Positions 9,092-58,359 of a stretch of DNA of 64,000 bases are shown here, in pieces. The notes under the pieces are model-generated. The model was not told the DNA's origin. It worked only from the letters and a program-made list of their open reading frames with translations, and did no database searches. Numbering within the stretch: the first letter of the stretch is position 1; each line of letters opens with the position of its first letter. The position numbers were made by a program, and so were the translations under genes. Origin of the DNA: Marsupella aquatica (Eukaryota > Plantae > Marchantiophyta); the NCBI GenBank assembly GCA_973895155.1, contig OZ316892.1, forward strand, positions 15,616,861 through 15,680,860, given 5' to 3'.

Positions 9092-10598
9092 GGGGTAAGG
9101 CCACCGAGATAGGAAACAGGGAAACAGAAATTCTGGTACCAGAAAAACAGATGTTGTTATCACGAATATTTTGTTGTTACCAAGGAAAACTGGTCTTTGG
9201 AACATGATTATTACTTCATTACTTCTAACCAAATAGGTCTCAAATAAGCAATATTTAATGGGTTTCATTTATTTTTTAGAGCTTAGAACCAACTAGCATG
9301 CCCAAAATTGTTGTCTGATCATACGTGAGTATGGAATCATCAACAAACTTCTCGAATATAGTGCCCTAAAAATTCCCGACACACAAACATTGGTGTTTCG
9401 CCCTAAATGCCGTAGGGAAAAACACCAATATGGTAGATCCCACCATAATTCATTTCAAAGTATATGCACACAAGAAGACAAAGAACCATGAATGAAAACC
9501 ACAAACAAAATTAAAGACCACAAACGGATGACTAGCGCCTGGCGCTAGCTAAAATAACAATAAGCAACACACCCAAAAATTGACAATGCATCACTACATA
9601 ATCTTGGAAACCAAACTCTTAAAAAATCATTTCCAGTGGTAAGATATACCATGAAGTAAATGATAATAAGGAAGACTTTCACCCGAGTGCCAGACCCTAA
9701 CATAAAACTATACCGTTGTAACACTACAAAAAACAATATAACTGTTTTGAGTATAGTCCGACAACTATATATTCTTTATAAACCATGAGAATTTTCCCTC
9801 TCCAAGATTAGTCGGACTTTGCCAACTGTGAGGATTGGTTGGCTGGTCAAAGTAGATTCCTCAACGTCTAGTTTGAAAACGGTCTGGAACACCCAGTACA
9901 AATGTTTGCAAGGCATATATGGTTGTCTACAAGAATGTCGACTGTAGAAATCCTCACATGAACATGTTGGGAAAATGCAAATCTGGACAAAGTAACTAAA
10001 TTCCGCGTCCTTAGATTCTTGTGCATCTGTACTTTGAATTGCTTCCTCCATGAGTTCCCAATAGAAACATCCCACTGTCCTTGGACGGACATGGTCTCTT
10101 TTTGTGCAGAATCAAACCTCTTCATGTGACCATGGGTCAGGGTCGATCAAGGAACCGTGTTCTTCCCATTCTGACTTTGAAGACAAATGGTGAGTTCAAG
10201 AAGATTGACCCTCTCTGGAAATAAGTTGACATTGATTTGAAGCTCAAAAACTGATGGTGGAGTAAGAGGACAGTGTCATCCTTGGACTATAGCTACCCCT
10301 GGTCAACAAGATACTTCATCTTAGCTTCCGAAACATTTGTTCCTTTTATAATAGGAAGAACATCAGGGAAAGAGGGCAGGTTTACTACACCGCGATGGGG
10401 ACGGCTCCTAGGCAGAACCAAATCATTTTGGCTATGGGTTCCCCCTGAACATGCATTGTCCTTTGACAACAATGCCGATAACACCATTTGCTGAGGGGAA
10501 CCCAACTTTCTTCACTCTATTCTAGCACTCATCTCTTTTGAAATTACTGCCAAATTATGCATTGCACTACGGACCGCCCCAAAATTTTGATGTCCGAC

Positions 10599-10880
10599 CT
10601 TGGGGATTTCACTTCCACAAAAATGACACATCACGTGCGACGAAGTATAGGGTCAGACATTTTATTGGTTCAAAGGGTAGACTTAAGAATTTTCTGAGAA
10701 GAACAACAGGGTCTTTTAAATCAAATTTTGAGACTTGTAAGAACATAGGATCCTTATAACCAATTTTTTTTGGAATTTTCCAAGAATATTCCAACTTTAT
10801 AGGTTCTTACATTTTAGGGGGTCCAAGGCCTAAAAACGTTGCAGGTGATGGGGAGGCATCCATATAGTGAGACCCCCGAG
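10599..10880. mobile_element. MITE with CT(C/T)GGGG...CCCCCGAG termini and 8-bp TSD
   Basis: Same family as 43417-43750 in opposite orientation. Flanks TGTCCGAC (10591-98) and TGTTTGGC (10881-88) differ only by transitions; removal restores colinearity with the transposase copy near 49745. Confidence 0.75.
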
Positions 10881-11207
10881 TGTTTGGCACAAATGCCATG
10901 CACCTTGCATGACTTCTGTTTCAAGAATTAGATATTCAAGCAATGTTTGTTGAAGCACAATGCGAGCGTTGTGTGGGTATCGCGTTGAACATGTTTGATC
11001 TTGACCCTACGATGTCCTAAAATTGTCACGTTTTGCATCCCTTGAATCATCACTCCCTGGTAGATTGACAACAAAAATGTCATCAGGTTTGTCTTTTGAT
11101 ATGGAAGCAAACATTGTGTGGTTCAGATTTTTAAGCTTGAACGATCTGGTATTCGGCAATGTGATAAGGACTTTATCATGTTGGTGGGAGTCTTGTGGCA
11201 AGATATT

Positions 11208-11593
11208 GGGGTACACATCATCATTAGAATCTCAGCTGAGGAGTTGACATGGGGCCTTCAAACTTCCGCGCATCTCAGCTGGGCAACCTAGGTTGACTCA
11301 ATCTCGGTTGACCTCGCCGAGAAGGGCGTACGGACCAAAAAAAAATCCCCCAAAAAAAACCAATTTTTAATTTTTTTTTAAAACAAAATCGGAAAATTTT
11401 TCCCATCTCAGCTGGCCTTGCCGAGATAGGTGTCAGTACGGTACGGGCGCCTCATGGCAAAAAAAAATTTGAAAAAAAAAAATCCTTCAAATTTTGAAGA
11501 AATCGCAACTTGGCGGCCTCTCTGAGATGAGGTGGCAGCTGATATCAGGTACACTGATGAAAGTGACTGATAACTGATGAGATTACCTATCTC
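11208..11593. mobile_element. 386-bp non-autonomous MULE-like element with 9-bp TSD CAAGATATT
   Basis: Perfect CAAGATATT at 11199-11207 and 11594-11602; removal restores the transposase frame (...NIL|PQDSH, cf. NVLAQDSH at 49432). The end CTGATGAAAGTGACTGATAACTGATGA matches 39513-39539. Confidence 0.85.
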
Positions 11594-14500
11594 CAAGATA
11601 TTCCTAGTTGCAGGTCCTTTCCTCTTGATAGACTTTGTTACAACATCTCCATTTAGAGAAACGCTTCTCTCCAAGTCAAACTCAGCAACATTGGAGAGTA
11701 GCATATTCATCGCATCCTCAAATAGCTTCGGGGAACTTGCCTGATCAGCTGAATGGAAAGCCAATTCCCATATTGTTGGACCTCTCCCTCTATTCAATCC
11801 TTTTCGATTTGTTGTATATGGTGCAACCCTGAGATACAGCTCTATTTTGATCCATTGCACATGCCTCGAAGAGCCCAATTAACCTTTTTTTCATTACCCA
11901 CATTTTCATTCTTGCGTGAACTGACTCTGATCCTAAACATTTTGGAATCCTAGCGCCTTCTTCAACACTTTTGTTCTGGAACGACACAGTACAAAATGTA
12001 GTGAGCATGCGCAAAAGATACTAGCACCAGGCGCTAGACAAAAACTTTGGAAAATCATCAAAATTATTATGTAATCATATGTTTGTCAAAATAAAAGATT
12101 CAAATCAGGTCAGTCGATGAGAATCAATTACATTATTTGGATATTGTGTTCAGGAATTGAATGTTCAGGAATGTCAACAGATACTTGAACTTCTACAAGG
12201 GAGAATGACTTGCATATTACTAGCACTAGCACCAGGTGCTACTACTCACCAAGAAAATAAAATTTCCCCACTGCCTCCAACTCACAACCCACCACAATAT
12301 CCAACACTGAAGCATTCAAAGCTTTCCAGGGAAGCAGTTACCAACTGCCACCATAGGCCAATCTCTGTTGAAAGTCGGTAGGCCTCAACAAATGTTGGTG
12401 CGTTATGTAATTTATCCCATAGCATTTGATGTTTTGCTTGCTTCTCTTCCAACAATGAAACGCTTGGTAAAAATGAAAAGTGTTCGTCCGCTCCCGTCAG
12501 GATTTGGGTGCCCTCCAAAAGAAACATTTTGGACTACTAACCATCCGGCTTGGGCATTGTCTGCCATAAAGCCATGAACAGTTGGGTTATCTAACCCATC
12601 CTCTTTGGATACCTCAATCATTAATCTCCAAGCCTTCTTGAAGGACTCTGTATCTTTAGCTTTTAGCTTGCAAGCGAATATTGTACACAATGCGCGGTAG
12701 TTGTGATCGTAAACGTGTGAGCTGAAAGTCACCCAATCCTTGGTCATTTGTTTCATAACATCGAAGCTTACCCAAGCACCTTCTAGACTCCCACCAGGTT
12801 GCATTTGCCACAAAAGATCCACCCCAACCCATGGCCTTTGGAACTTGTCATCTTGAGGCCTGTCTTCTTGAGACCCCTGACCTGGAAAGATGTACCTCTG
12901 GAGAAAAGGCATGTTGATATTCTTTTGATATTGAACTAGAAAATCCAACTCTCCATGATGACCTTTCTGGTCCTGCCTAACACTCCTGAAAAGAGATGCA
13001 AACTTTTGTGGAGTAGAAACTACCATTAGAGACTGAAAAATTTGTGTTTCTTTGATATCTTGAATATCACCCAAGTTGTCATGTGCACAAAGATTGTACA
13101 AAAGATTTTGTCGCTACATTTTTAATTAAGGCAGGCGTCGAAGATGGATTACCTTCCAATTTTTTTTATGACATCTTCATCCACCTTTTTTGCACTTTGT
13201 GAAAATACCTTACAACAAGGATGGTAGTGCAAAATGTGACTACGAGTATCTGAGTCAAGCAAAACTTGAGGATACATATAAAACAGTCTTGTAGAGCATG
13301 ACTCTACACAAAAAGGAATCTGCTGGCAATAATGACAAACAACTCCACCCTGCTCAATGAACGATCCAACACGGTGTGGCCCTCCAAGTTTAGGGGTACC
13401 TGTCTAGGCCTTTGCATTACTCCTCTTCTTTTGGCGGAAATAGTCACAAGTTTTATTCCTGCACTCAATAAATCCAGTACATGTAACTTTACCAAATTCC
13501 CAGTATTTCTTGGGCTGCACGTTTGCAGTAGTAGGAAAAATTCTAGTCTAGATGTAGCAATCCCTGGAGGGGGATTTCACCGTGACAGCAAACAACAAAC
13601 AACAAAACTCATACCAGCAAATTTGCAACAAAAAATGACACTAAATGAAAACAATATATATACCAAATATCAGTCAAACCCTGAAGTCAAGGTTTTATTT
13701 TGCACCTTACGCAAAGTTTAATTTGTCCAATAACGAGCAGTCTCTTTCAAAAAAAACTTGTTGCGCAAAAAGCAATTTCACATTATATTGGACCTCAAGC
13801 GGCCCTTGACTACATTTATACTAGCACCTGACGCTAGAGGGAAAACATTTTGGCTACAGAATCCCAAGGATTATGATAGACATATCAAAAAGCCTAATCA
13901 ACACCTCTTTGAACTACCGGCTAGAGTAATAGCATCGGGCGCTACCCAATAGGGGATGCCATGAAGTTCTTCTTTTGTGTCGCTCTCCCCAAAGAGAGGT
14001 GAAGAAAACAAGAAAGAACTAAAGACCAGATCCAAAACCACTCGACTCTGAGGCCAATTCAGAACCGCTACTTTCAGATCTATCTGTGGACTCCGCTTCG
14101 TCGTCTACATACTTGGATTTTGCAATGTCATCTATGAAGTGGTTCTGCAAAAACTTCCTATCTGAGCCTCTCCTGAGCCTAAGACCTTTACTCTCCCAAG
14201 TAAGCGTCCTGACTGAATCTGCCTGTTGTGCCGCCTTTTCAGCATAAGAGGGAAGGACAAATGGCTTCTCCAGGGTCTGTACAACGTTCCTAGAGACGTT
14301 CCTTTGAAGTTAAAAATGCCTCCAAAGATTCCACTCTGACCTGACAAGTTGAACTGGAGTTCTTTAGTCAAAGTCGGGAAATTGATGGAACTTTCTAGAC
14401 AAAAGGGAGTAGAGGAGATCTTTGGCAAAAAATATAAAATGAGAGAAAGAAAGCTAAAGATAATTACTCTTCTGACTCTTCACTGTCCTCATCTCTAGAT

Positions 14501-14633
14501 CCAATGTCCATCACATTCTTTGACACCTCATCAACTTTAGATTGTTGAGAACCATTGCCGCCCTCATCCTCGTCTTCAGAATCAAAATTTAGAATAGCAT
14601 GGAGCTTGTCCTAAGTCGCGGAACTTGACTACA

Positions 14634-24613: not shown

Positions 24614-24706
24614 TTACTCATATAAATGCGATGGTTAGTACTACGTCCTGAAGTATCCTGCCTAGGTGAATACGCACATGTCTCCCCTCTACGATATGCA
24701 GAGTGG

Positions 24707-37893: not shown

Positions 37894-38385
37894 TCGATCC
37901 ATGTCGACTACCTTCCCCGACAGATGCCTTCTTGTTTACGTCTATTTTGGCGCAATACATTATTTGATTGGATTTAAGTATAACTTAGTAGCAGTTCCCG
38001 ACAGGACTACCGAGTCAGCTACAGCGGAATGGGACAGCCAGGACAGACGGCTTGTCAAGCTCGCGTGGGAGGAAGCTTCGGCATATTTCTCGCCGGAGAA
38101 GTTAACCCTTCCGTGCTACCCTATTGATACCTATCATGAAGAAATAGTGCCTCGCTGTGTAAAAGAGAGAAAAAGGAAAACTCTCAAATTTGTTGATGAT
38201 AGGGCAAAAGAAGCTCAATCAGATGAGAGTAGCTCGGTAGGAAGTGACAATCTCCAAACTCACCATGTAAGTATAAGATTATCAAGCTCCAGTTCCGAAG
38301 AGTAATGTTTGAATGAATTTACCTTCATTGCAGCTCAGGAGAGACCTGAGAAACCAGTGAATGAGGGCTGACTCCCCGAGCAGGA

Positions 38386-39111
38386 GTGAAAGAGGTGGGG
38401 CTTGCAAACAAAGGAGTGCCCGCACAACAACAACCATCCAAATTTTTGGCGATAGTGAAGAAGGCATTGGACCCCAAGGCGGACCAAAAAGAGGTCATAG
38501 TGACAATCGAGGATGTGCACTTGACGAGGGCACATTTAAAATGCTTTCGGCCAAAAAAATGGATCACTTGCGACGTCATCAATGCTTACATTGCTTTACT
38601 GGAACAAAGAGCACAAACCCTTCATAAACCCAAGGCCATGTTATTGCCAACACATTTTTACCAAGTGATGACAACTCCGGAATATAACTTCAACGCAGCG
38701 TTGGCATATTGGCGGGGCATTCAAATGTGGGAGCACGAGTACGTTTTAATCCCCGTCTACCGGCCAAAATACTGGGTACTAGTTGTGGTTGATACTGCCT
38801 TGCGGCAACTGCATTTACTTGATCCGCTTGTGCCCAAAGCACAGGATGGCACAGAAGTGTTCAAAGTAGCTCAGTTTCTTTCGGACCTCTCCATCTTGCG
38901 GGGTCGTACCTTGTTATGTCCATTAGAATGGCCACGCATTTACCGAGATAACATTCCAGGTCAAGGGGATGATTACAATTGTGGTGGATATATCATTATC
39001 TACATGGAGCATATTTTTGGAGGCGGCGTACTGAACTTTGACCCTGCACTTATAGACATCATGCGGCAAAAGATTGTTGTGGACCTTGTCTGCCAGACAA
39101 TTACCCTATAG
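38386..39111 (+). CDS. Ulp1/SENP-like (C48) SUMO protease domain, catalytic His apparently changed to Tyr
   Basis: LKCF.P..WITCDVINAYI.LL, THFYQ, YVLIPV....YWVLVVVD, LLDPL, Q..DYNCG.Y. TAC at 38770-72 stands where CAC (HW motif) is expected. Confidence 0.88.
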   Translation: MKEVGLANKGVPAQQQPSKFLAIVKKALDPKADQKEVIVTIEDVHLTRAHLKCFRPKKWITCDVINAYIALLEQRAQTLHKPKAMLLPTHFYQVMTTPEYNFNAALAYWRGIQMWEHEYVLIPVYRPKYWVLVVVDTALRQLHLLDPLVPKAQDGTEVFKVAQFLSDLSILRGRTLLCPLEWPRIYRDNIPGQGDDYNCGGYIIIYMEHIFGGGVLNFDPALIDIMRQKIVVDLVCQTITL

Positions 39112-39552
39112 AGAGGATGGGAGATGGAGACGCAGCCTAGTGGAATTTAGTTCAGAAAATTGAGATAGACAACATCGTTGTAAAGTTCGGTACAAAGCTT
39201 AATAAAAAGTCAGCGAGGGTCCAAACATTCTTAATGTGGCTCCTATTTGATATGCTATGTTGTACACGTTGCTGGGTATGTTTTCATCTTGGCAAGCTCA
39301 GCCGAGATGGAACAACACTCCAAGGATATCTCAGAGAGGGCGCCAAGATGGTTAGAAAGGGCACCAAGATGGTCAGAGAGGCAGCCGACATTACTAATTG
39401 TCCGAACCAAAACAATGTCGGAGTGGACGCCGACATAGGGTTTGATTGTGGGTGTGAATTAAGTCCATGTCGGCGGCGTCGCTGAGTTTCGGGCACAGAC
39501 TGATATTAGTGACTGATGAAAGTCACTGATAACTGATGAAGTTGTGTACCTC

Positions 39553-42775: not shown

Positions 42776-44139
42776 CACAAAATATAGATGAGAGCGTCCT
42801 GTGGCATCTTGTGTGTGAACCATGACCCCTTTCTCATCTTTTTTTGGATTGCCTCAAACTTTACCATGTTTGCGCTATCAATGAGTGGTTTGTAGTGATC
42901 CAGATCACGCAACAAAATTTGGGAAATTCAAGAAGGCTCAACGACTGCTTGTCCAAGCCTGGATACAATGAGAGGTAATTAGCAGCGCCGGGCACAAAGA
43001 TCAGGGAATTGCCACTCTATGGTCCAACATATTTAGCCCAAAATCAATGAGAGCTATACAAGTAGTTAATGAATGTAACTTACTGGTTCACGGTGTGCAT
43101 CGTCGCCTTGAGCTCAACCAGAGAACCTCTATCGCCATTGAAATTGACGCAAATCACACAAGGATGATACTTCAAGTTGTTCGGATTCTCCCTGGTGACA
43201 ACTGACCAGGAGTACAATCACTGATTTTTGTCAAAGACACAAAACATTTTGTATTTTAGAATGTGGAATGTTGGATTTGCATCACACTCTTCCTTGAACT
43301 TCTCATTCTCTACGACTCAGATTGGATCCCAAGAGTCCTGGATCTCGCTTGTGCAGATTTGAGGAACCCCATCGGCATTGGCAGGCTGAACATAGAAAGG
43401 CATTCCAATGCGTGAGCTCGGGGGGGTCACTATATGGAGGGCCATACATCGCATGCGACGTTTTAGGGTTTGACCCCCCCTAACTTATAAGTGAAAAATA
43501 TTTTTTTGCGAAGCCCTTTCTTTCTTTAAATTTTGTCATTTTTATTAAAAAACCCCTAAAAACTTTAAAGAAAGTATTTTTTGCAATTAAATAGGCCTAT
43601 GTGTTCTTTAAAGTTGACCAGTCAATAAAACATGCCCTATGTGTTCTTCCACCAAACTTTGGAAGTCTTTCGCCACACCCATTTAAATGGGCCTATACTT
43701 TGTCACACGTGATGTGCCATTTCCGTGGAAGTGACCCCCCCCCCCCCGAGTGCGCAAGTTGTACCCTGTGACACAAAATGATCCTTTCAACTTGTCAATT
43801 GACGCGCTCTCTTTTTGCAATGTTTGAACAACCTCCATGGGGAGAAATCTACAAAGAGGAATTTGAGGAGGCTCCTTATCGAATCCTCAGAATTCCTTTC
43901 CAAACAATAACACATGCTTCAAGATTACCTCATCCATGGATAACCCTACGTTGCTGACTTCACCCCATGGCACCCTCCTTAGGGTCCATTCTTTCTCTTC
44001 TCAACCTCGAGAAGGGCTGCGTGGATTTAGCTTTGGAATTTGTTGAGGACGCAGTCGATCGGGTGACGCGACGGGTGTAGATTGAGCCAATGAACAAAGA
44101 CTGAGAGGACTTGGAATGACCACCATCAGCCTTCCCCAT
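42776..44139 (-). pseudogene. ParB/Srx-like accessory gene, copy A (3'-truncated, MITE-interrupted)
   Basis: SQSLFIGSIYTRRVTRS; FYVQP; SWDPI*V.ENEKF..EC.ANP; KMFCVFDKNQ*LYSW; DLDHYK..IDSAN..KF....KGSWFT.KMPQDAL.YILC, all aligning with 52471-53560. Confidence 0.8.
43417..43750. mobile_element. MITE with ~40-bp imperfect TIRs CTCGGGGGGGTCACT and 8-bp TSD
   Basis: Flanks TGCGTGAG / TGCGCAAG (both derivable from TGCGCGAG by CpG decay); removal restores GYNSRIGMPFYVQP. Confidence 0.85.
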
Positions 44140-46463
44140 TCTTGTATCACCCAACCAAAAGATGCTAAAGAGCGGGGCTTGACCTTCCAACACTGTCGTA
44201 CAAGACGTGCAGTTCTTGGGACAATCACGCCTCAAATTTACGAGAGCAATAAAGGACACACGCACACACTTGGGAAACACGTACAGTCCAAGGTATGTGC
44301 GCTTAAGTCGACTAAATTATCTACAAAGAGGGATCCCAACCTTGTATTAAGACACCGATACCTTCGACACAGCCAGCGGATTACAACGGTCAAGATGCTT
44401 GAACCATGACAGATGGCATTTCATGATTGGCCGTTCATGGCAAACAAAAGGAGAACGGTTCCGTGAACATCAATCTACTGTAATGTTATTGTTGGCAAGT
44501 GACAGTTGGGAGCAATACAGTGTTAATAATTCTCTCTAGCGCTAGTACAAAACATACACTCAACATACAACCAATTTTGACCTATTTTGACTAGGGTTCG
44601 GCACTGGTATGGAATCCATACATCTGCATTTCCAATTTTGTGATAGTGTTGAACAATAACTTATAATAGCGCTCGGCGCTAGTATCAAGAGAAATCATTA
44701 AATCAGACACTAAACATAGGTAACACATCTGCATTGCCAAATTATGTGACGGAATTGTTCAATAGCTTATAATAGCGCCTGGCGTTATCAAATTTGTCCA
44801 GAAATGGCTCAAAGTTTGTTCGCATAGACATAAAATTAACAACTGAAGTATTTGAGTTTAGGGCCCATCTCTTAATAGCACCGAGTGCTATCAAAATCAA
44901 TTTTAAGATTACACAGAATACAAAACTTTAAACAATTCTTTGTTTCTCAAAATAAGGCCGAGCGTTGTTGCAATTATCAACAAACAACAAGTGTTTCCAA
45001 CAATTTTAAATAATTGTTATTGTTCACGTTCACAATTACAATACATACACGAGAGTACAAACGGAAAGCAACACCGTTGCTGCCCTGGGTTCCAGCTGAA
45101 AAATGAAAAACTATTGGTCTTTTTGATTAAAAACACGCAAACTTCGATATCAAAAGGAACGGACAAATACCAAAACTTTGATATCAAAAGGAATACAATT
45201 AGGAACATTTTGGAAACTGTAGTAATCCGATGTGAGGTGAGCTACTGGCAATCATTTCCTATTGGAAAATACATATGGAAACATGTACCATCTAACTTGC
45301 TACATCCTCCAAGTGGCCCAAAACTCAAACTAAACGATGTGGTGAAGGGCAGTCAGTCATCCCACCAACTCGGCTTGTACACGTTAGAGTCGTCGTTGGA
45401 GTTGCTTGACCCATACCAAGAAAATCCTTGCCTGCTCGGAGATGAGTCCCCGCTCGAAGAAGGATCACTCTCCGTGGAGGATTCCACATCGGAGAGATCC
45501 CTACATGGAGTGGCTTGTCTCGGAGGTTTGACTGCAGTAGGGGCAATATATACTCCCCGGGGGAACAGAAGACGTGCCACTCCAATTTGGAGGATTGGAT
45601 CCTTCTCCACGGCCCGTAGGTGGCGTTGCTTTAGTCTTTGAGATTGTCTTGCCCTTGGCCGAGATCAGAACCATGGTCCTCTGTGTAGTCGGCCACGGTG
45701 GTAGGTTGTTCAACACGGGGGTCTCACGCTCACTATCACTTACAACAACGGCCTCCTCCTTACCCTTTCCTCGTGGAGGTGCCATTGAAACTGATCAGGC
45801 GATGGTAGGACTGAATAAAAGGACCAAAAGCTAACAAGAACCACTACTCACCACGCCGCTGACGTGCAACAAGAACTTGATGCCGTCTCTGCCCAGAACA
45901 CAAGTCCTAAAATGAGACTTGGGAGCGAGAACTTGTGGACACTGAAGAATTATAGGAGAATGAAGAGATATGAGAAGAATGAGGAGATATGAGGAGAATG
46001 AGGAGATATGAAGAGGTAGTCCCGCACTTTCAGTTTGTGTACTGACTTTCAAAGATGCTTCCTTCATCAATCTTTTGAACCGCAACGGTTTGGATACGTA
46101 TAGATATACAAAATAACTTCACGCGTGTGAACTTGATGACACGTACTGTACCGCGTCGGCTCTATATGACTTGGATACCTTTTTATTAATTGTGAAATAG
46201 GTAGCAACAAGCGCTATTATTATTGACCATCGCACTCCTCACCCAAGAGTGTCATCATATTGCTTCCAGAGGTAGCGTCAGGCGCTATTAACTTCTAACC
46301 CAAACCCAACTGTTGTTAAGACGACAAAATGTCATTGATGCAGTGCGTCCAAATCTATAACGAATCCTCTATAGTGAGAATGGAACGTTTACTTATTTTC
46401 CTGATCTCATGATAAACATATTTCATTTGGAGCGGGGCAAGTCCATTATCCCGTCTTGAAGCC

Positions 46464-49400
46464 ATGGCTCACAATATTGTTGTCACAATTCCCATGCCAG
46501 AATCATCTGAAACAAAGCAAGTTTTGGAGGAATATTTGGGAGTGAGATTTGATGTTTCCAAGGAGTCTATTCTTGCAATCTCATTGGTGTGTGTTAGTTC
46601 GGGGGAGACTCCAGTTTTCTACGATGTTGTTTGTGGACAAAGATATTGGACTATGGCTGCCCAGAAGGAATACAAAGTCTTTGTCTTAAGTGCGAGATTT
46701 TGGGACATGTAGTGCTCGTCCTCCCACATTGGGTCAACTCAATGTCATCAAGCTTTTGGAGAGTTCTAGAGATGAGAAGCAAGCCACAACTCCTATTTTA
46801 GGGAAGATTCCGGTTTACCCATTTGAGGTTAAAAAGGAGTGTAATGTTGATCGAGAAAAGATGGTGCCTTTGATTGTGTACCGGCAGAGTGCCATGGATA
46901 CAATCCTGAAATCCAAAGGGCATAGTGAATTATCTCGATTTATAAGGGTATGGCACGCGTGACAGTAAACAGGAAACAGGTTTACTGGTACAAGCAAAAA
47001 ATTTCTTGTTACCAGCAAAAAGTTATTGTTACCAGGAAAAATAACCATGTCAAAATATTTTCTAGAAAGTCTCATTTTCCAAAAAACTTTAAGTTACAAC
47101 ATTTTTTGGCTAGCTTTGGGCGCTAGCAAATAAAATAAATCTTTGAAAAAAAACCTTTTTTTTCCCCAATTTTTTTTTTTTTAAATTAAAAAAAAATTAC
47201 CACTCATTTTCCTATTACCAATTTCTGTTTTCTGTTACTGTTTACTGTTTCCTGTCGTTTGTAAATACCCCGTTTATAAGGGGAAATGATTTTGTTCATC
47301 ACATAGTTCCTAGTCTTCCCACATCGTACAATGGGAATGTGGTTTTTGAGTTACCCCTGGTAGACTGTGTGAATGCAAAAGGGGAACGTTTGAAAGATAT
47401 GGATTGCAGTAAGGATTGTTTTTACTGGACTTGTATTGTGAAAACATCTTCAAATGTTCTCCCAAAGAAAATGTGGGATTTCGAGAAAGTTCAGTGTACT
47501 GGATCGTTGCAATGTCGTAATAATGCTTATCCATGGTGGAAAGACAACAAGTCAAGAAACGATGATGTGTGGGCAAGAACCCCAAAACTTTCAGGCCCAT
47601 TCCAGGTTGGGGAATTGATCTCTGAAGGTGGAGTTTGTCACTATTGCTCTGAACCTTTGATGTGCGTTGAGGCATGCCCTGCTCTAATGTTCTACATGTA
47701 TCCATCTTGCAAAAGTTGATGTAAAGTCTTTGCCCACAGGTCATGACTTGCTGTTCATAAGGGATTTCACAATCATCCCAGTAGACGGGTTTGGTTGAGG
47801 GAGGCAAAAAAGGTAGCCAAGTTGCATTTGGAGAAGGGATTCATTGCAAACCCCATGGCAACCCCAGTTGGGATAAAAAACTTTGCGACTGAGACATTGA
47901 CAAACACATTTTGTGAGGCCTCTGTTGAAGAAATCTCTCTTGAAGAAGAGAAGGAAATTTGGGAGTCCTTGATGGTCGTCGCATCTCCTTAGAAGTTTGC
48001 ATCCATGTTAAGGAGTGTCCGTCAAGATCAGAAGGGGAAAGGGGAACTGGAATTTCTTGTCAGGATGCAAAAGTGTATCCGACTGCCTTTTCTTCAAAGG
48101 TTCTTGCTCCCTGGTCAAGGCTGCCGAGACGAGAGTGCTCATATCTTCAAAATGACCATAAAATGTGACGGGTGTGGTCTGGACTTGCTCCAAAGAATGA
48201 AATCTGGCGGGTCATTAGAGGGCTCATGGGTAAGTTTTGACGTTATGCATCAAAGCATGGCAGATTGGCTTACTTTTAGTGCCCATGTATATGATCATCA
48301 TTACCCGACACTTTGCACAATATTCACTTGTGAGCTAAAGGCCAAAGATGCAAAATCTCTTGAGAGAGCCTGGCGGTTGATGCTTGAGGTTGCCGATGAA
48401 AATGGCTTAAAAGATGTTACAATTTGGGGATTCATGGTGGACAATGCTTAGGCTGGTTGGAATGTTGTTTGAAACGTGTTTTTTGACGGCCTCCTCAACC
48501 CAGAGCAAGAAAGATCAGTTGCCTTCCATTTTTTCCAATCTTTTCATCGTCATTCCTGAGAAGGTGTAAAAGATGGAAAGCACGGAGAGCACAAGGAGAT
48601 GTGGGATCGTCTTTGGAACGTGTCAACTTTCTTGAAAGCATATCAAATCTTGAGGGAAATTGATGACTGGTGGAGGTCCGACAATTGTCACTCCTGAGGA
48701 AAACTTGGATGCTCCAAGGGTAGTTGTCCTGGTGGGTTGTCCGATGGAGACAATGGGGGAACTTCATAAGACTGGTGAGTTATAGTCTATTCTAGGATAC
48801 ATTGGCTAATTAATAGCGTCTGGCGCTACTGAAACATGTATGAAACTGCAAAGTTCTTCATTCCCAATAGTAGTGCCAAGCGCTAGTAAGCCATTTGGAT
48901 TGTGATTGATATTAGGGCTTACACTGTGATAAATTGTACTTTGAATGGAAACATACCCATCAAATATGATATACTAGCGCCTGGCGCTATTGTTAATTCA
49001 CTTTTATTTCCACTAGTGGGGCAATTTGCGATACATACTAAACACTTGCGTACAATGTTTCAGAGCAAGAGTGCCTAAGAAGCTGGTATGATTCCAAACT
49101 ATACTGGATCAAAATCTAGGCATGCTGGAATGAAAGCATGGCAACAGAAAATAAGGTTGGTCTATTTGAAGGATGCAAAATGGACCAAAATAGGGTTGTT
49201 GCTCAAATTGTTGCTTATACTACATACAAAAGGGGATTGAACAGAGGAACTGGCCCAACTATTTTTGAGCTTGCCTTCAGATCGGCGGACCTGGCGGGGT
49301 CACCGCATCTCTTTGAGGAAGCCACCAATCTTCTCCTATCAAATGCTGCAGAGTTTGATTTGGAAAGAAGCGTTCTATTGAATGGGGATGTTGTAACGCG

Positions 49401-50595
49401 ATCGGTGAAACAAAAAGGACATGCAACTGGGAATGTCTTGGCACAAGACTCGCACAGGCATGATACCATCCTTGTTACTTCACCAAATACAAAAGATTTG
49501 AAAAGAGAAACCTCCATTCCACTAATTTTGAGAAAATGTCTTCCATGCCTTCAGCCGGTGGAATTGATGGGGTCCTTAATTTGTCCGAAAGTGATGATTC
49601 TAAAGAAGTTGTAATCGTTGACACTCCTTTGCATCAAGCGACAAGATCTTTTGTTCCTCCAATGACCCCTGCAAGAACCCGTTGAGACTGCATATTGTAA
49701 TTCAGTTTCCCCAACAGAAAGTGAGGTACCTCTCGGTGCCTGGCAGTTGCGTCGGACCTCAAAAATGGGGTGCGGGTCCAATGTGTAACGAAACCCTTGG
49801 CCGGGGAGGGAGTCGTGATGAATGTCAAAATCAAGTGAAGAAGGTTGGGTTTCCAAATCCAGATGGTGTTGTTGCAATTTTCGTGAGAGGATGCAGAATG
49901 TTTAGGGGACAACCTTATAACAATCAGATATGGTTTTGCCCCAACAACGATTGTCACCAAATCACAACAAGGAGAGGAGTCTCAAACATTTTGAATGTTC
50001 CTTCACATCTCCCAATTGCCAGAGGGACCAATATTTTTGCAGCAGAGATTCAATTCTTGAAAGAACGAGGACCTATTCTCTCCAAAGGCCGTGGAGATAT
50101 GAAATTGAAGCACCGTTGTCATCTGCGTTATAGATTGATGTCAATATTTTCCCAAAGAGGATCAACCTAACTGACCCAACTATGAGGTGCGCTTCAAGGA
50201 ACGGGAAGAAATGCTTGCAATGAGTGCAGCTTACCCCGTCCCATTTGAAGGAAATGAAGCCTCTGAAAAATAAGTCATGAGCGTCATTGGTCAGAGAGAG
50301 ATCACATGCAACTGGAAATGCGTTGGGGAAACAATTTTGTATCCGGACCCATGAACATGATTGATCAGTTGCCTCTTATTGGGTCTAGATATGTTGTTTC
50401 CCATGTTGCTCCTGCAAGGATTTCTATCGTCAGCATACTTATCGGAAGCCTTACATGCCTTGTAAACATGTGTATTGGGTGTTCAAGAATGTGTTCAAAC
50501 TGGATGTGCACGATTTGACATTATGTAGCCAGCCAATTCTAACGTTGGGAGAAGTCCGTTATATACTTGATAGGAAATTGGGAACAGGAATTTAG
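46464..50595 (+). pseudogene. MULE transposase pseudogene (copy A): N-terminal region, Cys/His WRKY/GCM-like finger, DDE core, SWIM finger
   Basis: C.GSLQC.N...CHYC...C..ACPA...H.G.HNHP (47490-47780); SFDVMH...GFMVDNA*AGW...FHFFQS (48230-48545); CCSCKDF...PCKHVYWVF (~50403-50485); intron ~48775-49062. Confidence 0.82.
46946..47270. mobile_element. MULE-derived MITE (GGGTA...TACCC) inside the transposase gene
   Basis: TIRs with ACAGTAAACAGGAAACAG; flanks GATTTATAA / CGTTTATAA (7 of 9 identical); removal restores SRFIRGND; carries one TAGC..GGCGCTA palindrome (47111). Confidence 0.8.
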
Positions 50596-51049
50596 ACTAT
50601 TGTTTTAACGTTGAACAGCTAGAATCATGGTTTGTCTTTTCTAACGGGTAGAAGTGTAAGTTTTTTAAGTGTTGTTTTCGAAGCATAATTCCATACCACC
50701 GCCGGGCGCTAGTAATGTTGACTTGTGTTTTGCCTTCATAATTGGTTGCAATGTATTTGAGTCATTGTGTGAAATTATCAAAAATATTCCTATGTTGTTG
50801 TATAGTGGCGGGCCCCACCACAATGTTGTCCAAACAATTATTGCATATATGGACGCTAAATACCATGAAGAGAAGAAACTAAAATGCATACGATGAAACA
50901 AGAAACTTGTATGAGAAAACAGAATCTCGTACGAGTAAATAGATACGCTCTGAATACGAGTAATTTGTTTACTCATATGAGACAAATTTGTGCTCATACG
51001 AGGAAAATTTTGCTCGTATGAGCACATCTATTTGCTATTTGTTGTCACG

Positions 51050-51666
51050 GTGGTTATATCCATCCCTAGACCTGTCCATGTCGCGGAGGCGGGATCCTTT
51101 TGAAAGAATTCCTGGCGATGGAGGCAACTCGAACACAATATTCCCATTGTACTTTGGCGGCAAACAAGGTACTTGTTCATGTCAAAAGTTTCCACCCGTA
51201 ATGAACCTTGAAAGTTCACTGGACCCAGTTGACTTGAGCAACGCATCCATTGCACTTCGTCGATACACAAGCTGGGAATGCAACAATGGCATCTCCTCTT
51301 TGACCAAGACCACGTTAGGGGCTGGAGGCTTCATAAGAGGGATCCCTGGTGGCTCCTCATCATTACTATCATAAAGCCACATCCACCAAAGCCCTTGTTG
51401 GGGATTGTTGCAACCACAACGGAGTATCACAATCCAGCATTAAGGTGCCAGAATCTCTCTCCGTCATCAATATAAAAAAGTGCAACATATTTTGAGTCAT
51501 CTTCTTTGTTTCTCTCCTGAACAATTTCCTCAATATAATTCATGCGTAAATCAAACCTTCCACTGAGGTAAACCTCACTAACTTGCTTGTACGTTTCAGC
51601 CACAAAGACAGGAATGGAAATAATATCACCGGTCAACAAACGGGTAACAACAATTGACTGAGACAT
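51050..51666 (-). pseudogene. 5' fragment of a MULE transposase (copy B)
   Basis: LVYRRSAMDALLKSTGSSELSRFITGGNF...LP..YNGNIVFELP....KG.RL.DMD.S.D matches 46870-47420. Confidence 0.82.
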
Positions 51667-52470
51667 CGCAAAAGCCTCTAAAAAAATGAACACAAGAAAA
51701 TTATGAATCAAAATTCTGTGGGCGAGGAATGTTATTGATCCTAGCTAACAATTTCCAGACACCGTTATAATAAGACAAACACACCACCTGGCGGACAATC
51801 CTCCAACACCATAAATTATGTATTTTGTCGTTATATCAACAACATTTACGATTACAAACAATGCTTTTTGGGGGCACCTTTATTTTTTGAAAATCTCAAT
51901 TATTAAATAGTGTCTGGCGCTATTAAAAACAAACCAAAATTCAAGGGCCACTAGAAGTCAATCCATGTTTAGCACTTGGCGCTAATATTGGGTTCATTCA
52001 GATTCTAATTGTTTATGAAGGTAAACTATAAAATATGAGTCTCAAAACGGTCTTAAAAGGCAATGGTTTTTGATAGCGTCGGGCGCTAGTTTTGGTATAC
52101 CGACAGTATTTGAAAAATGTGTTTTAGTTTGTTGTTAACAATGAAATTATGCCATATTCCCATATCTTAAGACCATATTGTGTTACCAATTGATGTGAAA
52201 ATATAGTCCATTTAGCCTTTGGGTTTTGTGTTCATCAATACATTGATCCTCTTAGGTATTGTCAAATAAAGAAATGACAAGTGTCAAATATCCAGGGCAA
52301 GAGTTGACTTTTGTTATTGTATATCTTACGCTCTGCACTCTGGATTCTATTTAGTTTCCCTGTGCAGTGGTTATTTGTACAAGAAAGGAGGTGTATGACG
52401 GGTTTGTGCCGTTTGCAGTACGGTACAAACAAAGCGGTTGTCAGTCATTTCTTTCCCCCTTGTGCGAGTG

Positions 52471-54660
52471 ATGGACCCTGCCTTGTCCTCCTCTCAATGC
52501 TTTAGTGGAAACGGACAGAAAGAGGTCGTTCCTTTGCAAAAATCTGAGTGTTTTTTTTCAGGATCTGTGTATGGTCGTCGAGTGACCAGGTCCATTACTT
52601 CGCAAGCTCTTGAAACACAACCGCTATTACATTTCCAAAGAGCATGAGAGGGGAGATGGATGATCTTGATTTGTATGCTGTGGGGGACTACGGGGAAACG
52701 TTGCTTACTGTGTATGATGTGATCTCCAAACACATCATGTCCTTTGTAAAATATTTTTGAGGACACGACAAGGATCCCCCAAGGATTCCAATGTGTTGAT
52801 TACTTCACATGGAAGTAGTGCAAACATTGCAGAAGGGAAAACCTTTGATCAAGAAGTTGAAGGACTCTTTTCATAGCACGGGTTACAATTCTAAGATCAA
52901 CATGTTGTTTTACGTCCAACCAATAGATTTGAATGGAGATTCTAGATTTGTACGCCAGAGATTCGTGCTTCATGGGATCCAATTTTGGTTGTAAAGAATG
53001 AAAAGTTTGGGGCAGAATGTGCTGCCAATCCTGACTTACCATCTTGCAAGATAAGATGTTTTCAGTATTTGATGGTAACCATTGATTGTACGCATGGTCC
53101 ATCGTAACAAAGGAAAATCCTGATGATGTGAAATATCATCCTCACATACTCTGCACAATATTCAAGGAAGAAAAGGGGTCATTAATTGAGATTGAGGCAA
53201 CAATGCAAATTGTCAACCAATAAGTGTCTCTCTCAACATATGTATCTCTCTTCAATTACATTGTCTCTCCATTATAATTCCCATCCACTTAATTCCAATC
53301 TTTGGCAAAGTTTGACTAGCATTGGGTGCTACTGACTCATTTATTTTTCTTCAGGCTTGGGCAGGCAGTGTAACCCTCTTGGATACTTGACGCAGGCCGA
53401 ATTAACAGAATTCTATCAAATGATCTAGATTACTACAAGTCAAGCATCGATAGTGCCAATTTCAAGAAGTTTGGCCAGGTCATGCAGAAGACTCAGAAGG
53501 GATCGTGGTATACAAAGAAAATGCCTCAGGAAGCGCTTTTGTACATCTTGTGTGAAAATAAGATCAAGTCTTATTCTCGACAGTTTAAGATGGTTCTAGA
53601 GTTTGTTGCCGCTCAGGGTACACCTTGGTCTCTGGGAGAGATTTCAAAAAGGCACGTTGCAATGATGAAGGAGGCAACCAATGATTGGGCAATAAAGGTT
53701 TCAAAAATAACTCCTTTGTTATGCCCCGCCTTTGAGGATTTATGCGTACGTGCGCCAAGATGTACCCCCTGACAGAGAAGAATAAACGAGAGAAGAAACC
53801 CGATGCGGTTGTTTGTACAATGGATCAAGCAAGATTGTTTACAATCATGTCTATCCTCAACCCCAAGCTGAGGAGTATTCTTCTTGTTGCCCATTGTACA
53901 CCAGAGCTGAGGAAATAGTTCTTTCATCCACAAAATGTTAGTGACGATCCCGTGAGGCAATGGTGCCATACCTGGCAAACTTGGAACAATGTGGAGGGAA
54001 TCGCTATTGGTATGCTGCACACCTCCCTCTGGCAGGTCAATGATCAATATAGTCCCCACCAATTGATTGAATGTAGGAGTGGGATTGTGACTCATTTGAC
54101 TCGCTTATTGAAATAATCTTGAATGATTTTAAGAAATTTGGAGACACAGTGAAAGGCAAGTATTTGAATACAATGTGGCCTTCCAAGTATCCCAATAAGG
54201 TTGACTACATGCTGAAGAATCAAAAGAGGGCCAAACAATATCTCTATCGTTTCTTCATGCACATGGAGATTGTGAAGCCAAATTACTTTTGGGCTTACCG
54301 AGTTGCTTTCCATAAGTGGATCATAGTTGCCGAACGAGACATTCTGGCTAAGGTGAATTCAATGTATCCTGCTAAAGGGTGTCTTCCGCTAAGAAAACTG
54401 TCGGAATGGGAGAGAATTCATTGTCCGTGGTATTTGGATACTAACAGTTGGGACTCTCCGTTTGACAACACTGAGAAAGATGCATTCAATAAGCTCTCCA
54501 AATCTCAAGTCCCCCCCCCCCCAATTTGTGTCTGACATGAAGCAGGGAATCAAAGGCGATGTGAACCAATCAACGGCCGAATTGCAAATGGTATGCAAAA
54601 CTATGGTTGTTCATGTTGATCAAAGTCACAAACCCAGAGCCAAGGCAAAAACCAAAGGCA
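52471..54660 (+). pseudogene. ParB/Srx-like accessory gene, copy B (3'-truncated)
   Basis: KMFSVFDGNH*LYAW at 53053-53097 (TGA from CGA gives DGNHR); intron 53220-53354; WERIHCPWY matches WERQNCPWY of copy C. Confidence 0.82.
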
Positions 54661-54669
54661 TCACGAAAC

Positions 54670-55803
54670 AATTAGTGTCACTAACAATTAGTGTCACACA
54701 CACTAATTAGAGGTATCCCTTGATTTTCAGCCAACTGACACTATTTACCGTCACCTTCAATTTTGAAAAAAAAAAATTTAAAAATATTGATAATTAGAGA
54801 TAACAATATAATTGGTGGTAACCCTAAACTAGACTCACTCCAAAGTTATCCAGACTTTCAATGACATCTCTGTGTGCCTATGTTTTTAGAAGATTTCCTT
54901 TGTATTTTAGCTGGTCAGTCTTTGTGAAAGGAGAGTAATAGAGCGATAACATGGCGGGATATGGATCGCCCATCATAGTTGGATTTGCTAGAGTAAGGGA
55001 AAGAGAATCAAGATTATGTCAACATGTCACTGGTAATTAATCTGCGTCTCCTTTGGCTTTTCCTTGCGGCAAGACCCACAAAATGTTTTTAAGTGTATCG
55101 AAAGAGTCTGTTCTTTTCTTGAAGCAACTTGTGAAATGTTCGTTCTGTACTTTACGTCTCATTATGATCAACTTACACCTGAGCTTCAAAATATCATAGT
55201 ATAGTATCGAGTGAATTTTGAAGGGAGTCGAGTTGACCTTGATATTCATGCTACTGTTGAAGTGGCTCCTGAAGTTGGTGAACCAGGTGAAGAGCCAGCT
55301 CAACCCACTTCTCTTGGGGCTGTATGCTGTCTTGCAAGGATGAGACACAGGGGACAGGTTGAAAGAGAGTGAACAGGATATTAGTTTGTAGCTTATGTGA
55401 GACAACATATGTTATTCATAATTGATAGAAGTGAATCAAACATATCTTGCTTGCTCAATGTGGTTGAGTACCTCAAACTATAATTTTGTGCTATGTGAAA
55501 AGAGTTATAAATGTCTGAAGTTTGCTCAATGTTCAGTAGTATATGGAAAGAGTTATAAGTTTCTGAAGTTTGCTCAGTAGTAAATTTTGTAAAGTGTAAT
55601 CAAATATTGTGCACATTTTTCATTTTTTTAAAAGCAAATTTTGACTATAGTCTATTCTATTTTTTAACTTAAGTGTACATGTGACACTATTTGACTTGTG
55701 ACCACAATTAGTGTCATACCATATTAGTGTCACACACCCTAATTACCGTCACTTACCTCAAATATAACCTCACAGTAATTAGAGTGTGTGAGACTAAATA
55801 CTG
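54670..55803. mobile_element. Partial non-autonomous DNA transposon with a Tc1/pogo-like end (...ATACTG|TA) and repeated TTAGTGTCAC motifs
   Basis: Motif clusters at 54671-54710 and 55708-55800; decayed small ORF near 54950-55372; left end missing. Confidence 0.45.
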
Positions 55804-58359
55804 TAAAGAGTGTAGTTTGTCAACACATTCCGCAAAAAAACCTATATTTTTCACCTCTTTTGTCTCCAGATATTGGTTAGCACCAACTGAAGCGCTACTC
55901 TATCTCTCTTCCTATTGGTTCCTTTTTTAAAGTGAATTGTTTGTTCAGCACCTGGCACTATTATTGAAAAATGACTGTATTCCTTTAGGTGGGAGAAAGT
56001 CAGACGTTGCATGTGGTATACCCGTTAGCGATAATCTTCTAAATAGGAGACATTTTTAATTTTTTTGGATGGAAGTTAGAAACTTTGAGGTTGTAAGCAG
56101 GATAATTAGCCATAAAGAGCATTAAGTGAGTAGGGAAGAGGAACGGCCTTTACCAAGAAATGAGCGCTTCAACCTGGTGACCGGTAGCAGTAAGAGCGCG
56201 AGAAAGAATGAGTACTGGCGGAGGAGCTATGCAGGTCGAGGAAGAAAACCGAAGGCTTAGGACAATTGTTGAAGCTGTAATGTGACACCACTGATTGAAG
56301 ACAGGGCGCTGCGAGTAAAACAGGGATAATTTTTGGGCAGAAGTGTCAACTCATAAGAGGCGCCCTCTGTTAGTAGTTCTTAAGACAGCACTATTTACTT
56401 ACTCAGAGCACCTTTAGTAAGTTTACTAAGTAGATGTTCACTATTGTTTTACCGACAGCGCTACTAGTTGATTTTCCACCATAGTAAGAAGTCTCTTTTC
56501 TAGTTAGCAGCACTCAGTACTCTACTACTTTTCATACTAGTTAAAACTACAGTATGTAGTTTAGTTTAGATCAGCCTTTCTAGATCTCATTTTAGTTACT
56601 TTTCTTTCTAGATTCTAGGGAACACTTTCTCTGCCTTGACTTTGATGATACTTAAGCCCTTGTTTTTCCTCATTTCGGGTGAGAAGGACTAAATTGGAAG
56701 CCTGGCTGTAGATGCAAGACTCCCGGTCGCTCCCTTTGTTTGTGATCTATTCAGTTGTAGAGATTGCAAATGAAGTAAATGTTTGTGTTGAGGAATTTGT
56801 TTTGAAAGATTCCTCGATAAACAAGTGTATGTTCAACTTCTGGAAATCAAGATGAATTTTATGATTGATTGCTTACAGTGATGAGAATCATTCAAAATTC
56901 AAAGATGAATGTTTATAGGAAAGTGTCAAATCTATCATTGAGGGACAAGAGTACCATTATTATGCCCTGGACTTTTGCATTAGTGTTTTGTCTATGCCAT
57001 ACTTGATGCCTAGCCAAACCGTGTTGCCATCATTTTAATGCAAAGCTCGGCAATTATAATCTGAAATTTACCTTGAAAACGGTAGAGATTATATCTTTCC
57101 TGTGATCTTCTCATGACAAGAGCGAGATTTTGAAAGAGAAGAATATAGGAGAATGGGTTGAGTAAGACCCTAATCTTTGTTGAAGGAAGGGCAATGCCAT
57201 TCATATTCCTTGAATTCTTCCTTATGTAAATCCACCTTCAATCATGATTCCAGAATTAGTTGTTATTGGTTGATTTTATTCTGTGTTTGATCGGTTGAAA
57301 ATAGAGAAATTTGAGAGGTCAGCTTATATCTCTTCATTAACACTATTTCCTTCAATAGCTTCCACTTTGTTCTTTACGGGATCGACTTTGGGTTATCTTT
57401 GGCTTTAAACCTTGTGTTTTATTTATAGACTGGATATATTTAGCCGGATTTCTATCAAGGGAAAGGTACCGAAGGATCCCAGATTTAAGTTATCAATTAC
57501 CAAAGATCCTTCGATCACAAACTTAATTGGGCTTCCAACTTTGAAGACATATACATGGTCCGGAATTGCAATTAGTTGGGAATGTCAGAATCAAGCAACC
57601 ATTATGCACGACAAGACTGGGGAACAAAAGATACTGAAAACATGAATTCGTAACAAGTGTAGTGTACTAAGCATAGACCAGTGTCTGGGGCAGCCTCGTC
57701 TTGCGTCCACAAAGTTGATTAATGCACGTCCTCTTCACTAAAGATTAGTTCCCTAGAGTGTCTCGACCTGACTCCTCGTTAGCCAGGCCAAATTTAGTTA
57801 CTGCACACGAACATGTTCAAATACGCATTGCCGGAGCCTAGTCTAATGCCAACATCAAATTCCCAAGTCGACAATCGAGTACTTTTTCGTGAAATCTGTC
57901 TGAAGTGACTCTGCAAAAATCTTTCAAATAATACAATCTAAGTGGGAGCATATCTTTCAATCAATACTTATCTTTCCACCTTGCATTCAAGACCAATCCA
58001 ATTACTTCGCACAGATGAATCTTCGTTTTTACTTTTCTAAAGGTGCAGCCCAAAGGTACCAATTTCACCCAGGACGTGACGTGGTTCACAGACAATACCT
58101 AAACCCCTGAAAGACGTACCAACTATATAACATGATTTCATCAACAAATTAAGTATCACAATTTCGGGTGTAGTTTACATCTACAACATTTTTTAAAACA
58201 ACCCGGGTGAACATACTTGCCGAGTGCCAATTTTAACAATCGTTTTGTAAACTGTGGCAACAACGCCTTGCATTAATATGACCGAAAGACCAACAGCAGT
58301 TGTGAGCCCTGAACCACCGCCGCATAGTGTGAGTCAAAAGAAAGAAGAATTGTAACAAT

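Follow-up and report, generated by a model that had tools for sequence, protein, structure and literature searches.

The window, a 64,000-nt stretch of Marsupella aquatica contig OZ316892.1 within which the motif copies listed below were counted, contains the remains of an element made up of a MULE transposase gene and a divergent accessory gene. In both genes the non-coding intervals are filled with copies of a 15-bp palindrome, which also occurs in a derived MITE. A sister lineage, element E, lies between the copies. All copies of the family in the window are broken, and the sites described here are therefore either relics or act in trans. The features are as follows.

9092..14633, minus strand: copy A, decayed MULE transposase gene (DDE core ~12240-13110, SWIM end ~9780-10000)
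9533..55960, no strand: 15-bp palindrome TAGCGCCnGGCGCTA, 20 copies, ~23 bp including flanks
Copies of TAGCGCCnGGCGCTA, first half: 9533, 12022, 12227, 13822, 13930, 44667, 44773, 44876, 46202, 46273
Copies of TAGCGCCnGGCGCTA, second half: 47111, 48814, 48871, 48975, 50697, 51908, 51970, 52074, 53317, 55946
42983 and 44592: weak extra copies of the 15-bp palindrome
11208..11593, no strand: MITE2, non-autonomous derivative of the E lineage inside copy A, 9-bp TSD
30291..39563, plus strand: element E, the sister lineage, in which neither a left end nor a transposase was found
33276..34918, plus strand: accessory gene of E, with a GNHR box, an intron and a ~450-codon helical exon with 2 stops
35875..36887, plus strand: N6/N4 DNA-methyltransferase-like domain of E, two exons, in-frame 104-bp intron
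38365..39111, plus strand: Ulp1-family protease ORF of E (PF02902, E 3.6e-11)
42776..44140, minus strand: copy B, a ParB-like accessory gene that diverges from transposase C
45356..45800, minus strand: acidic ORF, small and broken, lying between the divergent genes; it matches no family
46416..50600, plus strand: copy C, decayed MULE transposase gene
46948..47272, no strand: MITE1, A/C-family derivative in a transposase exon, 9-10-bp TSD
51050..51750, minus strand: copy F, a third transposase gene, present as a 5' fragment and divergent from accessory gene D
52430..54535, plus strand: copy D, ParB-like accessory gene with frameshifts and stops

Transposase copies and the Mutator assignment

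The assignment of these copies to MULEs in the first-pass annotation was borne out by the DDE residues, a SWIM pattern, the TSDs of the MITEs and a fold match to ISCth4. Candidates for the D, D and E catalytic residues are visible in copies A and C, and a database homologue (P0021) is 59% identical to C and 56% identical to A over the DDE exon. The top three Foldseek matches of the structure model of P0021 were all to ISCth4 (best E 5.2e-4), which we take to belong to the IS256 family. With the transposase model, VIA returned mostly helical bundles; integrase cores scored Z 6-6.8. The Pfam MULE profile matched none of 27 transposase homologues at E<=1, and these proteins therefore represent a divergent MULE clade. 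Relatives of the transposase also exist in the liverwort Calypogeia fissa. A C-terminal SWIM finger is common but not universal in MULEs; a CxC...CxH pattern is found in A and C, with a Pfam SWIM match (E 0.045) below the cut-off. The N-terminal region of the transposase is Cys/His-rich and presumably GCM-like, and a Pfam search of this region gave no match. The TSDs of MITE1 (9-10 bp) and MITE2 (9 bp) fit the 8-11 bp range stated for Mutator/MULE elements in the accessible text of PMC6446971, each of the large copies being without one end. The imperfect TIRs on both MITEs match single ends of A and E, there being no large element with both ends.

Copy A has a terminus at 9092 and carries five palindrome copies; no accessory gene is in view there because a Gypsy LTR element cut off the 5' part. 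Three palindrome copies lie inside the copy C intron at ~48778-49061, and MITE1, with termini resembling the end of copy A, has a single central palindrome at 47111. A Gypsy-like insertion truncates copy B, and an unrelated MITE (~43411-43757) splits it; three palindromes lie upstream and one weak copy in its intron. Copy D similarly has three palindromes upstream and one in its intron (53317).

Distribution and persistence of the 15-bp palindrome

All 20 of the copies first proposed were verified at their given positions, with 0-4 mismatches each. The 15-bp palindrome has 15 matches at <=2 mismatches against 0.04 expected (maximum 1 among 100 shuffles). There are 22 matches at <=3 mismatches, 20 of which lie within the family (including the weak copy at 42983, absent from the original list) and two outside, at 2508 and 22611, the latter within a Gypsy element. 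A scan of the window with a PWM trained on the 20 copies themselves gave 21 matches (the 20 copies and the weak copy at 44592; that at 42983 fails the threshold) compared with 0.7 per shuffle. All 21 fall in MULE copies and the derived MITE, and none in host genes or Gypsy elements, in agreement with the absence that had been noted. A 15-bp core was correctly recognized, but 15 bp is not the full extent of the site, as the flanks extend it to ~23 bp with the consensus ~TTAM-TAGCGCC-n-GGCGCTA-KTAA. Inspection by eye of the sequence around the copies revealed no TSD pattern.

The palindrome is confined to non-coding DNA, as proposed. A homology-based exon map assigns 11,384 of the 18,034 family bases to coding sequence, yet coding overlap was found for 0/21 copies (the 20 and that at 42983). 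The motif also outlasts its diverged flanks, with identity at 75/98 motif positions versus 110/350 positions in the 25-bp flanks of seven orthologous-interval pairs, although copies were paired by order and those close to the consensus were selected, so that the motif figure is inflated. Between these copies, four-fold degenerate sites are saturated (29/118 identical), and the palindrome recurs in equivalent introns and spacers of these saturated copies. The description of most deviations as CpG-type does not stand, as only 15 of 36 are of this type. Overall, 31/36 deviations are C>T or G>A, and 15 are C>T or G>A in the central CC/GG. When half-sites are folded, G5>A is seen 12 times versus 3 times for C4>T (p=0.035; copies not independent), a pattern of loss that looks like constraint, not plain CpG decay. 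These elements are depleted in CpG (o/e 0.5-0.67) and were therefore methylated at least after death, which counts against the binding-site reading favoured below.

The accessory gene and a sister lineage with another palindrome

The accessory gene evolved under coding constraint, with identities of 0.76-0.85 at codon position 2 and 0.35-0.45 at position 3. Copies B, D and E share the same phase-2 intron, in which the lineage's own palindrome lies 20-31 bp before the acceptor. The ParB identity proposed for this gene is retained as far as a GxxR-like box is concerned, but profile and fold tests gave no significant ParB match. The box is intact in E (GNHR), reads GNH followed by a stop in D and is degenerate in B. 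HHalign aligns it with the GERR box, and among the fetched ParB_N members GxHR/GHxR variants exist. Against 20 ParB_N sequences, only the 16-column GxxR box aligned (probability 0.35), with a score reached by 5/60 shuffles; in global mode the score was reached by 14/40 shuffles and is not significant. Searches of the accessory-gene fragments against Pfam, PHROGs and NCBIfam returned no ParB family, a PDB sequence search for ParB relatives gave no result, and a phage tblastn yielded four weak, unrelated matches. The domain following the box has an all-helical model of low confidence (pLDDT 52) with no recognisable helix-turn-helix, and fold searches with this model matched nothing clear or significant. 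Atlas features for exon 2 of the E accessory gene (best 0.89) provide a lead only. A DUF6551 lead from these features yielded 0/151 genomes, with the controls also silent. No longer relatives of the accessory gene of D were present among 303 candidates.

The sister lineage has a homologous accessory gene and uses another, 23-bp palindrome in the same intron. Element E contains 53 copies of this palindrome, ATCTCGGCGAGnCTCGCCGAGAT, and no copy of the 15-bp motif. Consequently, the 15-bp palindrome is confined to a ParB-carrying family as far as lineage A/B/C/D/F is concerned, but the claim fails for E. The two motifs are mutually exclusive: the 21 D-type matches are all in A, B, C, D and F, and the 55 E-type matches are all in E and its MITE. 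One end of that MITE (MITE2) matches the right end of E, and it carries two E-type palindromes and lacks the 15-bp motif. The E-type palindromes lie mostly in tandem arrays (169 bp x5.2, 44 bp x4.5, 40 bp x20), and one is found in the accessory intron at 33508. The E accessory gene is without the N-terminal half present in B and D. The methylase-like domain of E is recognized by Atlas features (0.94, with PF01555 in 10/10 best matches) and by weak matches in other searches, and its catalytic and SAM-binding motifs look degenerate. No methylase domain was found in B or D, both of which are truncated.

Candidate readers of the palindromes

On balance, we lean towards the palindromes being lineage-specific sites bound by an accessory protein of the element itself, probably to counter silencing or for self-marking. 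The 15-bp palindrome would be a conserved cis-acting tag of one giant Mutator-type transposon lineage; its likely reader is the ParB-like accessory protein encoded by the element, which would label the element and probably protect it from silencing. The two-fold symmetry of the site suggests that it is read by a protein dimer, with the accessory protein, rather than the transposase, as the probable reader. The GxxR-like box is predicted to be nucleotide-binding and may enable the dimer to load and spread like bacterial ParB. Once bound, the protein would alter the chromatin nearby, perhaps by means of the methyltransferase-like and Ulp1 domains in lineage E, and therefore only cognate copies and MITEs would be affected, as with VANC.

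The earlier suggestion that these sites are read by the element's own ParB-like protein gains from the second lineage, whose own palindrome in the intron of a homologous gene would, judged from sequence, strengthen the view of an element-encoded reader; the part of the suggestion that fell away is the likeness to parS, as the palindrome is identical to the parS consensus at only 5/15 positions. The lineages compared as DNA are two, both in one window. Because the lineages also differ in their transposases, that of E not being in view, the motif switch cannot be assigned solely to the accessory gene. As in the system described here, bacterial ParB-parS combines a gene that has a GxxR-like box with several nearby palindromic sites of comparable length. 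In contrast, the accessory gene is eukaryotic and intron-containing, has ~35 extra residues before the box and no recognised helix-turn-helix, and no ParA was seen.

The VANC-like layout that had been proposed, a family-specific motif in the non-coding DNA of a MULE with an accessory gene, was supported. As described in the accessible text of PMC5735166, VANDAL motifs are short and family-specific; they are found in the non-coding DNA of introns, intergenic regions and termini, vary from one related family to another and multiply as tandem repeats. The sites described here resemble VANC21 sites in being scattered over introns and spacers, but they are palindromes, whereas the VANC21 motif, of 9 bp, is not palindromic (PMC5735166). 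No VANC homology was seen, and Pfam searches with the accessory and small ORFs gave no match.

Closer parallels come from algae. The accessory gene PAG3 of red-algal Plavaka (EnSpm), Mutator and Zisupton transposons is described in the accessible part of the Bostrychia paper (bioRxiv 10.1101/2025.02.11.637652) as having an N-terminal ParB-like domain and adjacent inverted repeats, with proposed binding to its own element, in a cassette that also carries the N6-methylase gene PAG2. Judged by this described layout and not by sequence, both systems combine a giant DNA transposon, a ParB-like accessory gene (at box level here) and inverted repeats, and the arrays of E match the layout. In contrast to PAG3, the host here is a land plant, the sites of A-D are single and dispersed in introns and spacers rather than in arrays, and no 2OG-oxygenase or SET domain was detected. 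The accessible text of PMC12477816, which cites Iyer et al. 2011, describes an Ectocarpus Sola1-1 accessory protein, ParB-like with an N4/N6 methyltransferase, on the other strand from the transposase. The ParB-like gene here likewise lies opposite the transposase strand, and in E a GxxR-box gene is followed by the N6/N4-methylase-like domain. The superfamily and host of Sola1-1 differ, however, and that text mentions no palindromes for it; moreover, the methylase motifs of E look degenerate and a Ulp1 domain follows. VANC is the only transposon protein named in the accessible part of the Bostrychia paper as binding and modifying its own element (10.1101/2025.02.11.637652), and the ParB-type accessory proteins of algae are proposals only. 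The general idea of a ParB-like gene with its own inverted repeats is already in print for algal transposons; what is new here is the land-plant MULE and the motif switch between sister lineages.

The window offers two related proteins and two distinct candidate sites, making a reciprocal binding test straightforward. Reading by the accessory protein, if true, would mean that a ParB-type clamp works on chromatin in a eukaryote; it would also bring land plants into the system and provide orthogonal chromatin tools with sequence specificity. A bolder version is put forward tentatively, and we doubt it in this full form. Land-plant Mutators would carry a nucleotide-gated ParB clamp of bacterial origin that loads on its own palindromes, spreads and rewrites chromatin, with protein and site co-evolving as lock-and-key pairs; the parS/ParB switch would have been repurposed for anti-silencing, possibly from the N4/N6 methylase pool that liverworts use for 4mC.

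The main rival, which we consider rather unlikely, is that the transposase binds the palindrome as an internal site, which would serve as an enhancer of transposition or in autoregulation or activation. Both MITEs keep TIRs and the family palindrome, which fits a transposase site equally well, and the Cys/His-rich N-terminal region could bind DNA. A MULE transposase on its own is able to bind motifs and to hypomethylate and activate the family to which it belongs (10.64898/2026.08.24.746577). The AtMu1 transposase, however, peaks at TIRs (10.64898/2026.08.24.746577), whereas the palindromes lie deep in introns and spacers and are absent from the termini found; furthermore, the 53 sites of element E surround an accessory gene with no transposase in view. 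Copy A, with five palindromes and no visible accessory gene, would suit a transposase site, but this absence is uninformative because the Gypsy insertion removed the 5' part. If the transposase is the reader, the result is a modest finding on internal MULE sites.

It is improbable that the palindrome is a host-factor site, RNA hairpin or splicing signal exploited for element expression. Copies do occur in introns and promoters, three of them 20-31 bp before a splice acceptor, and the palindrome can fold in RNA. However, the 1-base centre makes a poor hairpin loop, many copies are intergenic, Rfam gave 0 matches, and the PWM scan found none in the host genes and Gypsy elements of the window. 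Nor would a host factor account for two unrelated palindromes in sister lineages. We give still less credence to a true parS-like role, in which a nucleotide-gated clamp tethers, condenses or segregates excised or extrachromosomal element DNA or joins its ends. The GxxR-like box in three copies, the repeated palindromic sites and the spacing of 103-108 bp in 5/9 short gaps (~ten helical turns; gaps partly orthologous and not independent) are set against the lack of parS similarity in the palindrome, of a ParB fold match for the accessory gene and of a ParA-like partner among the ORFs scanned (all elements being truncated); moreover, cut-and-paste elements are not known to need partition. A passive relic of old tandem or inverted duplications or tiny insertions is already disfavoured and barely credible: a local 105-bp duplication does carry motif copies (44620-44681 vs 44725-44787, 79%) and the E-type arrays are tandem, but flanks and four-fold sites are saturated with the motif near consensus in seven orthologous intervals, no similarity above z=3 was found among nine spacers, and TSDs are lacking by eye.

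Searches were extended beyond the window. The literature covered, with most subscription papers and Repbase lying outside it, held no account of a ParB-like gene or the 15-bp motif in bryophyte MULEs. The 15-bp motif at <=2 mismatches was absent from 141 fetched loci (140 bacterial, 553 kb). Viral contigs gave 0/17 related loci and no match in a motif-pair scan. The metagenomes supplied one related locus from 152 pattern matches (L001; 1,053 bp, nearly all coding), in which neither palindrome is present. Among 49 database proteins, peptide traces of the 15-bp motif amounted to one chance match in coding sequence. In database relatives of the E gene, the terminal peptides back-translate to the E-type palindrome, at the protein level only; such ends were seen by eye in P0003 and, among the 49 proteins, twice in P0004 and once in P0018.

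Nested elements and the transposase

The window consists of decayed transposons nested between host genes. One of the host genes, near 4.4–5.6 kb, looks SNF7-like from its sequence; an intact hydrophobic host ORF of 364 aa (58360–59454, −) has no Pfam match. Self-comparison of the window revealed one transposase gene in two long copies, A (−) and C (+), with F as a 5′ fragment of it, and a second, accessory gene in three copies (B, D and E). B–C and F–D are divergent gene pairs. The other features are as follows.

14.6–28.7 kb and ~40–42.8 kb, Gypsy elements
29118–29513, chromodomain ORF
30291–39563 (+), element E, of MULE type, a sister lineage of the A/B/C/D/F family
46948–47272, MITE1, within C, derived from the A/C family
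11208–11593, MITE2, within A, derived from the E lineage

The Gypsy element at 14634–28735 has 4-kb LTRs that are 97% identical, with no matching TSD seen by eye, and a diverged copy of its LTR starts near 62611. A 2.4-kb Gypsy-like stretch (39900–42300) holds 14 of the window's 30 TCCGGA palindromes. At 43411–43757 (in accessory gene B) and ~10580–10880 (in transposase A) sit MITEs of a third family, unrelated to the other two and lacking both palindromes described below. Between the divergent B and C lies a small acidic broken ORF (45356–45800, −) with no family match and no counterpart between F and D. A near-perfect 38-bp hairpin (50989–51026) stands where the 3′ region of C meets the truncated F, and the word ATTAGTGTCACACAC, repeated 3′ of D (54668–55800; four copies and a reverse variant), perhaps marks the ends of another insertion.

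The transposase of the A/C family is Mutator-type, based on three features: ISCth4 is the best match for the predicted structure of a transposase homologue (E = 5.2e-4), a SWIM pattern ends both the A and C transposases, and the TSDs of the two derived MITEs (9–10 bp) fall inside the 8–11 bp given for MULEs (PMC6446971). The Pfam MULE model matched 0 of 27 transposase homologues. Among 31 transposase relatives, the seven with a named source all come from Calypogeia fissa, which makes a liverwort the likely host.

The 15-bp palindrome

All 20 copies of the palindrome listed in the first-pass annotation are present. Allowing two mismatches or fewer, the window contains 15 matches versus 0.04 expected; with three mismatches, one family copy beyond the listed 20 appears (42983), as do two outside the family (2508, 22611). 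A PWM scan of the window gave 21 matches, all in the family, versus 0.7 per shuffle. Confinement to ParB-carrying elements applies to the A/B/C/D/F lineage alone; element E carries an accessory-gene homologue without the motif. Together with a weak TTAM/KTAA extension in its flanks, the site measures ~23 bp. Short gaps between copies measure 103–108 bp in 5 of 9 cases, partly through shared ancestry.

Decay was earlier described as mostly CpG-type, yet only 15 of 36 deviations lie at CpG, while 31 of 36 are C>T or G>A. Within half-sites, G5>A occurs 12 times versus 3 for C4>T (p = 0.035, with copies not independent), an imbalance that plain CpG decay would not give.

None of the 21 copies overlaps coding sequence, though 63% of the family's bases are coding. 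A and C both carry the palindrome in one shared intron of the transposase gene and in the 3′ region; upstream of the accessory gene it stands three times in each of B and D, and further copies lie within that gene's intron. Its persistence beside diverged flanks was borne out: paired motifs agree at 75 of 98 positions versus 110 of 350 in their flanks, although we did the pairing ourselves and chose copies that resemble the consensus. Four-fold sites compared between the same element copies agree at 29 of 118. A firmer point than these identities is that palindromes stand in equivalent intervals after saturation. As judged from the sequence of one 64-kb window with broken element genes, the palindrome is a real, selected cis element.

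Element E and its own palindrome

The accessory gene of E is homologous to that of D (34 of 121 residues identical in exon 2). The PWM scan found no 15-bp palindrome in E, which instead carries 53 copies of a 23-bp palindrome, ATCTCGGCGAGnCTCGCCGAGAT, many in tandem arrays. Two more stand in MITE2, which has a 9-bp TSD. A PWM trained on 19 of these same copies gave 55 matches, all in E and its MITE and none elsewhere in the window (0.5 per shuffle). Terminal peptides of database relatives of the E gene back-translate to this palindrome, as read from protein sequences alone.

B, D and E share a phase-2 intron in the accessory gene, with the lineage's own palindrome 20–31 bp before the acceptor in each, in degenerate form in B and E. 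The intron donor is GTAAGT in B but ATAAGT in D (53222) and E (33445), a pattern that points to the splice site having been lost twice through independent G>A changes.

Element E also encodes a Ulp1 protease and an N6/N4-methylase-like domain (35875–36887) with degenerate motifs. The methylase motifs DPPY and FxGxG are not recognisable in this domain, which may be inactive.

Candidate readers of the palindromes

Red-algal Plavaka, Mutator and Zisupton elements are described as having arrays of inverted repeats next to a ParB-like accessory gene (10.1101/2025.02.11.637652), and Ectocarpus Sola1-1 as having a ParB-methylase gene (PMC12477816); self-binding is proposed in each of these sources. 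Literature searches found no bryophyte or land-plant case. The present system is a new form of a proposed but unproven kind, and what is new is the host group, the scattering of a palindrome across introns, set against a measurement of saturation as control, and the exclusive palindromes of two sister lineages at a homologous position.

The best fit, by analogy, is an accessory protein that would act as a dimer, read its family's palindrome across the element and change its chromatin or expression; VANC21 likewise acts at non-coding motifs (PMC5735166). The main rival reader is the transposase: both MITEs hold a palindrome together with TIRs, and the AtMu1 transposase is reported to activate its own family, but its binding is located at TIRs (10.64898/2026.08.24.746577). 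A parS-like partition role has nothing beyond resemblance in its favor, the palindrome matching parS at only 5 of 15 positions.

The accessory gene evolved as a protein-coding gene. HHalign aligns its GNHR box with the GERR box of ParB, at a score that shuffled sequences also reach. No family library names the gene, and the 390 residues after the box, predicted to be helical in a poor model, gave no match in fold searches. The label "ParB-like" is consequently a lead, made more plausible by analogy with the Ectocarpus case, which likewise has a methylase neighbor and divergent orientation.
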